A stretch of DNA of 46,687 nt from positions 1 through 46,687 of the forward strand of contig JBEKDT010000023.1 in the NCBI GenBank assembly GCA_050014195.1, read 5' to 3'. The notes beneath the pieces were generated by a model, which saw only the letters and a program-made list of their open reading frames with translations, searched no databases and had not been told where the DNA came from. Shown one piece after another: positions 17,971 to 33,367 of the stretch. Made by a program: the position numbers and the translations under genes. The stretch is from Desulfomonilia bacterium. Its GTDB lineage: Bacteria > Desulfobacterota > Desulfomonilia > UBA1062. Each line of letters begins with the position of its first letter. Positions within the stretch are counted from its first letter, which is position 1.

Positions 17971-18003
17971 GAAGAGGTCTTTTGAGTTTCGTCGCATATT
18001 TAA

Positions 18004-18246
18004 GGTTCATCACCGTAAAGCATACTTGGATTTTTGAGGAGCACACAGAGGGATATCTAACCACGAAGAGCACGAAGGACACGAAGAAAAGAATTCTCTT
18101 GAAATCTCTGACCGGGGGAAAGGAATCCAAGAATGTTCGTTCTGCATTTCTTATATTTTTTTCGTGCTCTTCGTGTCCTTCGTGGTGAGAACAATGGACT
18201 AGAAAAAGAATGCAAACCATAAAAGTATGCTTCATAGCGAAGAACC
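18004..18246. mobile_element. MITE copy 1 (probably ISL3-derived), no gene cargo
   Basis: 24-bp imperfect TIRs GGTTCATCACCGTAAAGCATACTT / AAGTATGCTTCATAGCGAAGAACC; direct repeat ATATTTAA at 17996-18003 and 18247-18254; inner inverted CACGAAG arrays at 18060-18085 and 18161-18186; arms near-identical to 31996-32544. Confidence 0.85.
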
Positions 18247-18361
18247 ATATTTAATATATCATGTGAGGGTGGAATCATGGCAATAATCAAGAAAATGAAC
18301 CTCCTTTTCCCTGTGTTCGCCTTTCTTGAAGTGTCTTGGCCAAGGTGGTATAGCCTTTTTT

Positions 18362-30764: not shown

Positions 30765-30857
30765 TGGCGGAGAGAGAGGGATTCGAACCCTCGGTAGAGC
30801 TTTTGACCCTACATTCGCTTAGCAGGCGAACGCCTTCGTCCACTCGGCCATCTCTCC
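30765..30857 (-). tRNA. tRNA-Ser(GCT)
   Basis: GGAGAGATGGCCGAGTGG...TTCGC-CT-GCT-AA-GCGAA, long variable arm, GGTTCGAATCC, encoded CCA; 93 nt. Confidence 0.98.
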
Positions 30858-31125: not shown

Positions 31126-31953
31126 ATGAATCATAAAACTGAAGAACGGATCTTATCGAGACGGAAAGATGACTTCTTTTCTATGGGCCTCTTATCCGCA
31201 CTCGTACTCTATATCATTCTCGCATCCGGATGCGCTTCATGGCAGGGTAAAGCGGAAAAGGAGATCCCCTGTAAGGTTGCGCCGGAAGGCATTGCGGGTC
31301 TGTATGGTGCCAAGCTCTCCGCATCAGACACCCCGGATAGAATGATCCGCTTGAAGCTCTCCCCCGACTTTCGCTCGGAATTACTCACCGATAACCTGGA
31401 TGAGAAACCGGCCATTATCGAAACCGGACAATGGGAATGCAAGGATGGCTTAAAGGTGACGGTTACACTTACCGGGAGGAAGGACCTTGCCTATGAGAAG
31501 CCTCACGTCTTCATCTTTACTTTTGATGCGGATATCCTCACTGCCGTTACGTACGACCGCGGTATCTGGGGAGATGAGGTTCCGCACCTGGCCCGGAATC
31601 CGGCTGCCGCCGGTACAGTCTGGCGGCTTGTGCAGATCCAGTATGCAAACAACACGGCTGTGGTCCCTGAAGACCCATTGAAATACGTCCTCATCCTGTC
31701 TCAGGACGGTACGGTGACGGTGCATGCGGACTGCAACCGGGGTATGGGGAGATATCTCTTGGCCGGCGCATCGCTTGCTATGCGCAAACTTGCTTATACC
31801 CATATGATCTGCCTGGAGAACTCTTTGTTCGACCAATACACCAAGGCCCTTGAGTCTGCTGAATCATGCATGGTTAAAGACGGCAATCTCTTCATCATGC
31901 TTCATAAGGACAGTGGTGTCATGAAGTTCGAGCCGGCAGATTTGGGTCAGTGA
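31126..31953 (+). CDS. Lipoprotein with NlpE-N-like and META (HslJ) domains
   Basis: Lipobox LASGC; GLYGAKL...IIETGQW (NlpE-N-like); GTVWRLV...ADCNRGMGRY...THMIC (META). Start may be 31183. Confidence 0.75.
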   Translation: MNHKTEERILSRRKDDFFSMGLLSALVLYIILASGCASWQGKAEKEIPCKVAPEGIAGLYGAKLSASDTPDRMIRLKLSPDFRSELLTDNLDEKPAIIETGQWECKDGLKVTVTLTGRKDLAYEKPHVFIFTFDADILTAVTYDRGIWGDEVPHLARNPAAAGTVWRLVQIQYANNTAVVPEDPLKYVLILSQDGTVTVHADCNRGMGRYLLAGASLAMRKLAYTHMICLENSLFDQYTKALESAESCMVKDGNLFIMLHKDSGVMKFEPADLGQ

Positions 31954-31995
31954 AAATCACTTAACTAAAAAAAGCCGCTCCAACAATCCTTTTAT

Positions 31996-32544
31996 GGTTC
32001 ATCACAGTAAAGCATACTCGGATCATTGAGGAGCACACAGAGGGATATCTCACCACGAAGAGTACGAAGGACACGAAGGATGAAATTTTTTTGAACTCTC
32101 GACCCGGGTCATTGGCTGTGCCATTGAGGTAAATCGTATTCTTGGCCCTCTCGTTGTTGGAATCGACATACGAGCAATGCCTGGCACATGAGCTCCATCG
32201 GGCTGGGATAGCTTTCAAACTGCAACATCCATTGCCTGTGGAGTACAAGGGAACAAGACTGGACTGCGGCTAAAAGAGTTGATGTGCTGGTAAATGACGA
32301 GCTGATCTTAGAACTGAAGAGTGTCGAGGAGGTCAAGGGCATCCACGAAGCCCAGTTGCTTACGTATATGAAGTTGGCAGGTGTTAAGACAGGCCTGCTG
32401 ATCAACTTCAATGTGAAGGTGCTTCGGACGGGCGTTAAGCGTTTTGTCCTATGATCTACTTCGTGCTCTTCGTGTCCTTCGTGGTGAGAACAATGGGCTG
32501 GGAGAAGATGCAAACCATAAAAGTATGCTTCACAGAGAAGAACC
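31996..32544. mobile_element. MITE copy 2 carrying a GxxExxY pseudogene
   Basis: TIRs GGTTCATCACAGTAAAGCATACT / AGTATGCTTCACAGAGAAGAACC; flanks cCTTTTAT (31988-31995) and aCTTTTAT (32545-32552); inner inverted arrays at 32052-32077 and 32460-32485. Confidence 0.85.
32080..32454 (+). pseudogene. GxxExxY protein (PD-(D/E)XK nuclease family), three frameshifts
   Basis: Reconstructed [120 protein letters not shown]-stop. Confidence 0.92.
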
Positions 32545-32599
32545 ACTTTTATATAATATCTTTCCTTGAACGCATCTTGCGCGTCTGGAGGCTTAACGG

Positions 32600-33367
32600 C
32601 TACTTCCCGTTCAGGAGCCCCTGTATCGTATCATGAGCAGTCATTGCCGGGTCTTGAGCATTCATGATCTTGCCCATCAGATAACTGCCTACAATAACCC
32701 CATCGGCAAAGGTAAGCAGTTCATTTACCTGGGCTGCACTCGACACCCCGAACCCGACACAGACCGGCAGATCGGTCATCTCCTTGATGGCCAGTACCTG
32801 GGAGCACACATCTGAAGGCATGTCATTCCTCATGCCCGTTACCCCCTTGATGGATACTGCATACACAAAACCGCTGCACTGTGAAATAACCTCCTTCATC
32901 CTTTCAGGGACAGTGGTAGGCGCTACCATGCGGATGAGGTCGATCCCGATCTCTCTGCAGTCGGCGTAGATCGTATCCGCATCACGGGGCAGGTCCGGGA
33001 TGATGGTACCCTTCACGCCGTTGTCCTTAAGACTTATAAGTGTCTGCCTGAGCCCATTGCGCATCAAAGGATTGATGTAGGACATGACGATGAGCGGTAT
33101 GTCCAGCATAGTGCTCCACCCCTTGAGGCAATCCTGAAGCTCGCCCATTTTAAAGCCCGCCTGCAAAGCCATGAAAGAGGCCTTCTGCAGCACAGGCCCG
33201 TCCGCCATCGGGTCGGAGAAGGGTATGCCGATTTCTATGGCGGCAGCACCTGCATCCTGAAGGGCCAGGAGGATCTTGCCCGTAGTATCCAGGTTCGGCA
33301 GGCCTGCCGTGATATAAGGAATAATCGCCTTTTTATGATCTCTTATCGATTGGGCTATCATGGTCAA
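32600..33367 (-). CDS. trpA: Tryptophan synthase alpha chain
   Basis: [40 protein letters not shown]. Confidence 0.96.

Follow-up and report, generated by a model that had tools for sequence, protein, structure and literature searches.

A GxxExxY nuclease gene that sits between two inverted arrays of a short word, nested in a putative MITE, raises the question of what multiplies the arrays: the nuclease itself, in the manner of RAYT proteins and REP sequences, or the element that surrounds it. The gene lies in a Desulfomonilia bacterium (genome G000; 4.2 Mb in 29 contigs), in a 46,687-nt stretch of DNA (the window) that comprises all of contig C23. A sequence-only reading of the window had proposed that nuclease and inverted arrays form an undescribed selfish or repeat-propagating unit, here captured by a second mobile layer.

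The locus is built of an outer and an inner set of inverted repeats. The outer set includes: (i) an 8-bp target-site duplication (TSD), CCTTTTAT at 31988-31995 and ACTTTTAT at 32545-32552, for which the empty site of sister genome G004 has a single ACGTTTAT, and (ii) imperfect 23-bp terminal inverted repeats (TIRs) at 31996-32018 (+) and 32522-32544 (-). The TIRs bound a gene-bearing element of 549 bp (31996-32544) that occupies an intergenic site with a META-domain gene on one side and trpA on the other, and the interval first singled out (31988-32552) is exactly this element plus its two duplications. The inner set is separated from the element ends by outer arms of 58 and 61 nt. It consists of a left array at 32054-32078 (+), with three words at 9-nt spacing (CACGAAG at 32054-32060, TACGAAG at 32063-32069 and CACGAAG at 32072-32078), and a right array at 32459-32483 (-), with three CTTCGTG words (32459-32465, 32468-32474 and 32477-32483) in inverted orientation. 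The GxxExxY (PF13366) PD-(D/E)XK nuclease pseudogene between them (32080-32454, +) runs from an ATG at 32080-32082 to a TGA at 32452-32454. The proposed framing by inverted 9-mer arrays is, thus, confirmed as 3+3 words at 9-nt spacing. The abutment is as tight as proposed, but the distances differ: the ATG follows the last word after 1 nt, not 2, and the TGA precedes the first right word by 4 nt, not 5. The left array does supply an SD sequence, but the AAGG next to the ATG is not the usable one; that role falls to the GAAGGA of the second word (32066-32071), placed 8 nt ahead of the start codon.

Arrays of this kind are rare by chance and occur twice in the window. The double-word pattern ACGAAGNNNACGAAG (at most one mismatch) is found eight times versus 0.15 expected, a count reached by none of 100 shuffles, and all eight matches are confined to 18063-18183 and 32055-32482. 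The former stretch belongs to a gene-less second copy of the same MITE (18004-18246, +, 243 bp), with arrays at 18062-18086 and 18160-18184, a loop of 73 nt and a perfect TSD (ATATTTAA at 17996-18003 and 18247-18254). At the gene-bearing locus (32054-32483), the inverted array arms span 31 nt and are 84% complementary, and 32048-32078 is paired with 32459-32489 in both the MFE and the centroid structure predicted. In both window copies, the arrays and TIRs are predicted to pair as RNA (z -3.1 and -4.8). No Rfam family matches 31900-32650 at E up to 1.

The framed gene retains the nuclease core that had been recognized in it. TIGR04256 (cut-off 35) is matched by the two longer open pieces with 62.7 and 38.2 bits, and PF13366 (cut-off 22), the sole Pfam match, with 61.8 and 38.2 bits. 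The motifs D...ELK, AQLLTY and GLLINF all lie in frame 1, where the catalytic stretch reads VDVLV...ELILELK...AQLLTY; across 84 relatives, the columns of the catalytic D...E-x-K and Q-x-x-x-Y are either invariant or conserved to at least 90%. No single frame of about 120 codons remains, and the reading order is frame 1 (MKFF), 2, 3 and again 1. Compared to the closest intact relatives, which have the same CACGAAG words (L009 of G024 and L011 of G023; 124 aa, 63-76% identical), all three breaks are +1 insertions, located in a T-run (32086-32092), near 32148-32153 and in an A-run (32272-32275), the last of which creates a TAA at 32271-32273. The three frameshifts of the earlier reading, thus, hold, and they recur in independently assembled Logan contigs from four peat-metagenome runs, which span 32031-32444 without interruption and differ by one substitution at most; this argues that the frameshifts are not errors of this particular assembly, with the reservation that one run may be the source sample. 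Among 24 runs listed, no holder of this stretch is recorded as RNA. Judged by its reading frames, the gene at 32080-32454 is a pseudogene of the GxxExxY family. Genome-wide, G000 has six TIGR04256 matches, all broken or partial and all within or beside arrays.

An intact homolog is modeled with high confidence (pLDDT 97.3) as a minimal PD-(D/E)XK domain, the fold that the sequence-only reading had named for the family, and is nearest the Cas4, RecB and lambda-exonuclease types and generic restriction-like folds. The best matches are Cas4 SSO0001 (4ic1; Foldseek E 1e-3, TMq 0.52; VIA Z 7.7, within the Z range of 6-8 that marks generic PD-(D/E)XK resemblance, e.g., 3ijm 7.9, BpuSI 7.7, NucS 6.9 and Hjc 6.2) and Cas4 4r5q. 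The alignment keeps D66, E76, K78, Q90 and Y94 (K78 and Y94 at least 90% conserved). By contrast with the Cas4, RecB and lambda-exonuclease types, the GxxExxY protein is only about 122 aa long and is devoid of Fe-S cluster cysteines and partner domains. A sequence search of the PDB with a 10-sequence profile returns no match at E up to 1.

The outer layer behaves as a MITE. BLAST finds 63 stretches in 41 loci of G000 (about 41 copies), and 23 elements are complete with both ends, the TSD being perfect (8/8) in 11 and 7/8 in three, with AT-rich targets. Sister species provide empty sites for both window copies. G003 (flanks 97% identical) and G004 are without 18004-18246 and read CGCATATTTAATATATC, with a single ATATTTAA in place of ATATTTAA-243-bp element-ATATTTAA; G004 is also without 31996-32544 and has its one ACGTTTAT where the window has both CCTTTTAT and ACTTTTAT. 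The nesting of the gene in a MITE is, thus, borne out by TIRs, 8-bp TSDs and empty sites. Copies form a size series: two carry the gene (549 and 539 bp), those of 312-331 bp have internal deletions that keep both gene ends, those of 225-245 bp have a loop of 70-74 nt, and those of 305-317 bp have an additional module of about 62 nt in one array. The 5' half of the loop of the short form resembles the 5' end of the gene (5 of 300 shuffles as good), whereas its 3' half is not gene-like (70 of 300), a pattern that is no more than suggestive of an origin from the gene. In four of 20 gene-less copies, the core (arrays plus loop) is flipped relative to the arms, as expected from recombination between inverted arrays. 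Overall, the element shares with MITEs its TIRs, 8-bp TSDs, AT-rich targets, size (225-550 bp), abundance (about 41 loci), insertion polymorphism between sister species and internal-deletion series. It differs in that its interior is a foreign nuclease cassette with inverted arrays of its own, not a deleted transposase gene, and in that no cognate IS with the same ends is found in G000 or 51 other genomes of the family.

The source of transposase for this MITE appears to lie elsewhere. TIR pairs more than 600 nt apart are absent from G000 and the 51 other family genomes, and transposases of the ISL3 (PF01610), IS6 (PF13610) and IS256 (PF00872) types are absent from G000. An IS1595-type transposase (PF12762, one locus) and DDE_Tnp_1 (PF01609, two strong loci) were considered as drivers and rejected, as their ends are unlike the MITE TIRs. 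Draft assemblies often lose IS copies. The TIR pattern is present in 13 of 52 genomes of the family, with bursts in G000 (52 termini) and G059 (25 termini).

Two further features of the MITE copies are noted. The module of about 62 nt has the same CACC-ACGAAG-AGC stretch at either end and follows the core into the flipped orientation; it is carried by the G000 copies at C2:261319-261635, C11:146163-146470, C15:51641-51945, C21:37963-38278, C6:157838-158196 and C16:68985-69499, and by the flipped copies at C5:168153-168468 and C25:16167-16472. Possibly, the module arose as a nested insertion or represents an arm from another lineage of cassettes. In G024, two loci (L165 on C20 and L167 on C49) match the G000 MITE in right arm and TIR and retain about 40 nt of the 3' end of the gene; thus, the MITE-cassette composite is shared between two genera of the family.

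The gene-bearing copies record the order of events. The +1 A that makes the TAA at 32271-32273 is common to the copies on C23 and C4, while the other two frameshifts are private to C23, and the two copies have separate target duplications. The nuclease was, thus, already broken before at least one of the two transpositions. All 113 exact double-words of G000 reside in MITE-related copies: 107 were assigned by BLAST clustering and six were inspected by hand and lie within a long element or immediately next to one, or in a reversed and diverged copy on C17. The arrays in this lineage, therefore, multiply as passengers of the MITE and not via the nuclease. Double-words are also found without a detectable GxxExxY gene in G002 (14), G003 (10) and G004 (8). 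Such independence of arrays from the gene, which the sequence-only reading had taken to speak against a nuclease-array unit, is real, but is explained here by the MITE. The nearest other MITE copy is just 89-93% identical to those of the window, compared to a flank divergence of 3-6% from the genomes with empty sites; thus, either the source copies are missing from the assembly or precise excision occurred in the sister genomes.

Outside the MITE, the frame of inverted words around GxxExxY genes is widespread. Inverted tandem words lie hard against the ORF at 15 of 16 GxxExxY loci in relatives (by eye; best inverted scores 24-57), the word being CACGAAG, CCGCAGAT, CACAGAG, CACAGATT, ACGAATG, CACCAAG or CGCAAAG according to lineage. 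In a broader set of 79 loci, which are those with both flanks among the best 80 of 588 relatives and represent more than 12 phyla plus two archaeal MAGs, the inverted match of the flanks surpasses the 99th percentile of mononucleotide shuffles in 61; shuffles served as the flank control because loci share words, which renders a mismatched-locus control uninformative. The relatives include cultured isolates, e.g., Stieleria tagensis TO1_6 and Rhodopila globiformis DSM 161. The proposal that such genes are generally flanked in this way is, thus, upheld. The cassette arms are built of CRCNRAG words with periods of 8-10 nt. At the 30 clean loci for which a strict word pattern detects an array on either flank, the number of words is exactly 3+3 in 15 and equal on both sides in 23, and AC precedes the outermost word on both sides in 23. 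No TSD signal is detectable in these 30 native cassettes, as sought by direct repeats at offsets 0-8 and lengths 3-9. The lack of both arms and TSD in native cassettes supports the division of the locus into two layers.

Native cassettes are found at gene junctions, most often in the sense of their neighbors. In G024, 3 nt separate the cassette from the stop of the preceding gene and 8 nt from the ATG of the following one, with all three on one strand. By a crude calling of neighbors from longest open frames, the upstream gene is co-oriented at 60 of 77 loci and the downstream gene at 55 of 74 (both at 41 loci, both opposed at five), and the cassette gene lies a median of 79 nt from the upstream stop. 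The orthologous cassettes of G024 and G059 differ by a dS of 0.83 with a dN/dS of 0.155 and have upstream arrays identical at 27 of 27 positions. As indicated by this substitution ratio, intact cassettes are kept under purifying selection. Internal stops are present in three of 80 loci and are read as a sign that decay is common. At least nine genomes of the family have, in place of the cassette of G024 and G059, a spacer of just 41-59 nt that is too diverged for the junction to be read.

Individual cassettes depart from the common plan. Locus L010 (G039:C192) has its right arm, downstream of the GxxExxY gene, amplified to about four tandem copies of a unit of about 45 nt. Tandem cassettes occur at L014 (G028:C146) and L013/L019 (G008:C22); at L014, a 3' GxxExxY remnant and its right array directly precede the left array of the next cassette. 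In the CCGCAGAT lineage (L008, L018, L022 and L016; G026 and G034), the start codon lies inside the word CGCAGATG and the frame continues into the right array; thus, the arrays are partly translated, as AADPRDEQ... and ...FSNLR. The second GxxExxY gene of G059 (L187, C132:210-545) has AATCCGTG words upstream and downstream that are direct rather than inverted. G023 has an intact CACGAAG-type cassette together with gene-less array pairs in two other, longer repeat families (L159-L164), the arms of which are unrelated to the G000 MITE.

The frame is not peculiar to the nuclease, as unrelated four-helix-bundle genes (TIGR02436) of the same relatives are framed likewise by inverted flanks at 13 of 17 loci, mostly with 7-8-nt periods and quite different words. 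TIGR02436 is the family of ORFs found in 23S rRNA intervening sequences (S23p). This common architecture, together with the sense orientation of the cassettes within operons, points to the ORF-bearing rRNA intervening sequence as the closest known relative, not to REP/RAYT. The intervening sequence of Coxiella burnetii is 428 nt in length and has a four-helix-bundle ORF flanked by terminal repeats; these pair into a 28-bp stem that RNase III cuts (PMC4990558). With a spacing of 9 nt, three words would give a stem of nearly the same length. Intervening sequences with ORFs (e.g., those of Coxiella helix 45, with S23p, and of Leptospira) and the present locus also share a size of about 430-550 nt with one small ORF filling the space between the repeats, terminal inverted repeats that enclose the ORF in a stem of about 28 bp (here predicted), a sense orientation in a transcribed region, and a sporadic, horizontally spread and decay-prone ORF (PMC4990558). 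The likeness extends to the relatives of G000, where the four-helix-bundle family of the intervening sequences has the array frame. The differences are that the element here lies outside rRNA (helix 25 or 45), between the META-domain gene and trpA, that its cargo is a PD-(D/E)XK nuclease, that its arms are tandem word arrays and that it is nested in a MITE. Cutting by RNase III is a feature of the intervening sequences and is proposed here by analogy only. In G021, 24 four-helix-bundle matches on many contigs cover, in nearly all cases, only the first 50 or so positions of the family; this set has the appearance of a burst of derivatives with truncated genes, comparable to the MITE series.

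What the words do in intact cassettes can be approached from their pattern of conservation. Complementarity between the arms is 94% in the words (783/833) and 55% in the spacers (112/205), and the sense strand has no excess of G.U pairs (49 versus 55 A.C in 40 usable loci). Together with the persistence of the word across phyla, these properties argue against a mere helix. On a quick tree of 49 proteins, the word type changes 20 times, as compared to 25.5 times on average, and never fewer than 21, in 300 shuffles. The anticipated cophylogeny of repeat and protein is, thus, detectable as a signal, but the tracking is weak: words switch often among one-letter variants, while the six copies within a cassette stay alike. 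The words contain SD-like GGAG, GAGG or AAGG, and part of their conservation may reflect ribosome binding. The frequent switches and the SD-like content speak against a tight specificity of the protein for its word. Between an RNA stem and a nuclease binding site the tests, thus, point both ways, and both may apply.

These data bear on the analogy to RAYT/REP, in which the GxxExxY nuclease would bind its own CRCNRAG arrays and selfishly spread the array pair, whether or not the gene goes along. The outline is similar, in that REP/REPIN sequences and RAYT likewise combine a single gene and a flanking inverted short repeat that also occurs gene-less in the genome, and G023 has gene-less array pairs alongside an intact gene. 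Binding by the protein would account for a word conserved in more than 12 phyla where four-helix-bundle cassettes use other words, for the fixed number of sites (3+3 in 15 of 30 loci) with their terminal AC, for an upstream array that is unchanged at a dS of 0.83, for words that pair so much better than spacers and without G.U bias, and for a word type that follows the protein tree better than 300 of 300 shuffles. However, that cophylogeny is weak (20 changes on 49 tips), the gene-less pairs of G023 are also embedded in longer repeat families, and G002, G003 and G004 have arrays and no detectable gene. RAYTs are, moreover, HUH Y1 (IS200/IS605 TnpA-like) transposases and REPs are single palindromes of 20-40 nt, not three-word arrays, whereas the GxxExxY protein is of the PD-(D/E)XK fold and its gene-less copies are TIR/TSD-bounded; we know of no strand-transfer activity in a lone PD-(D/E)XK nuclease. 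Propagation of this kind is, on the whole, unlikely, although it is one of two live models for the cassette class, and as a mechanism in G000 the analogy is not supported: all 113 double-words, and with them every array, are in TIR/TSD-bounded MITE copies, and the composite moved after its gene was broken. Of the undescribed unit first proposed, what stands is a real and recurrent association of nuclease and inverted arrays; its selfish propagation is not supported in G000.

Two other readings place nuclease and MITE in a different relation. If an intact GxxExxY protein were to cut in a staggered manner at the TIRs and so produce the 8-bp duplication, the MITE would be the transposon of the nuclease itself, in keeping with the absence from the assembly of another transposase with matching ends and with the presence of arrays in every MITE copy, no arms-only copy being seen. 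This is very improbable given that the 30 native cassettes elsewhere have neither arms nor TSD, that both gene-bearing copies share an inactivating frameshift yet have separate TSDs, that neither of the two GxxExxY genes of G059, a genome with 25 termini, lies within TIRs, and that TIRs occur in just 13 of the 52 genomes. Conversely, the arrays might be an incidental palindrome that serves the MITE as a hairpin or terminator and is unrelated to the gene, as might be thought from the many gene-less copies and a hairpin that folds well (z -4.8). This notion is scarcely credible: the same words frame intact GxxExxY genes without MITE arms in G023, G024, G059 and many phyla, and the MITE copies of intermediate size keep both gene ends.

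The locus is, instead, likely a two-layer fossil, a MITE that carries a dead word-array cassette of the class that resembles rRNA intervening sequences. The outer layer would be a non-autonomous transposon, moved in trans by a transposase absent from the assembly, and its insertions at the two window sites would postdate the divergence from the sister species. Its inner cargo is a GxxExxY gene of about 124 codons, with three inverted CACGAAG words hard against either end. This cassette was probably captured once, already carried a frameshift when the composite last moved, and probably then shrank by internal deletions, in the size order 549/539 bp, 312-331 bp and 225-245 bp. Living cassettes of the class would be expressed by read-through, with the two arrays pairing in the transcript to form a stem of about 27 bp. 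Such a stem would hide the SD sequence and start codon and would offer a processing site of the RNase III type, as in the ORF-bearing intervening sequences of 23S rRNA. The conserved word may double as the binding site of the nuclease.

To our knowledge, the GxxExxY (PF13366) and four-helix-bundle S23p proteins are large multicopy families with no known function, and the mobility of ORF-bearing rRNA intervening sequences has been an open question since the 1990s. The two families are now seen to share one frame, an ORF abutted by inverted short-word arrays, placed in sense at operon junctions with no target duplication. The intact framed members are under purifying selection, and the three-word arrays provide concrete substrates for biochemistry. 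Capture by the MITE acts as a natural dissection, in which the arrays persist and multiply without a working nuclease; thus, array copy number alone is not evidence of nuclease-driven propagation. A bolder view, offered tentatively and with more doubt than conviction, is that GxxExxY genes with 3+3 CRCNRAG arrays are an undescribed, pan-bacterial and archaeal class of nuclease-driven cassettes. The protein would read its own words, in DNA or transcript, insert at gene junctions without target duplication and limit its own expression, and the four-helix-bundle cassettes and rRNA intervening sequences would be sister branches. If true, this would give the rRNA intervening sequences a mechanism of mobility.

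The analysis adds the MITE layer together with its empty sites and the frameshift common to both gene-bearing copies. Among the main texts of openly available papers, no description of word arrays framing GxxExxY genes was found. The heptamer repeats of Beggiatoaceae were considered as a possible instance and set aside, since they are direct repeats upstream of start codons, not inverted arrays that frame an ORF (PMC4679880).

The window has one further feature of note, upstream of the gene-bearing element. A tRNA-Ser(GCT) gene (30765-30857, -) adjoins a short gene for an N6/N4 DNA methylase (PF01555; 29973-30644, -), and the pair may mark the edge of an element integrated at the tRNA.
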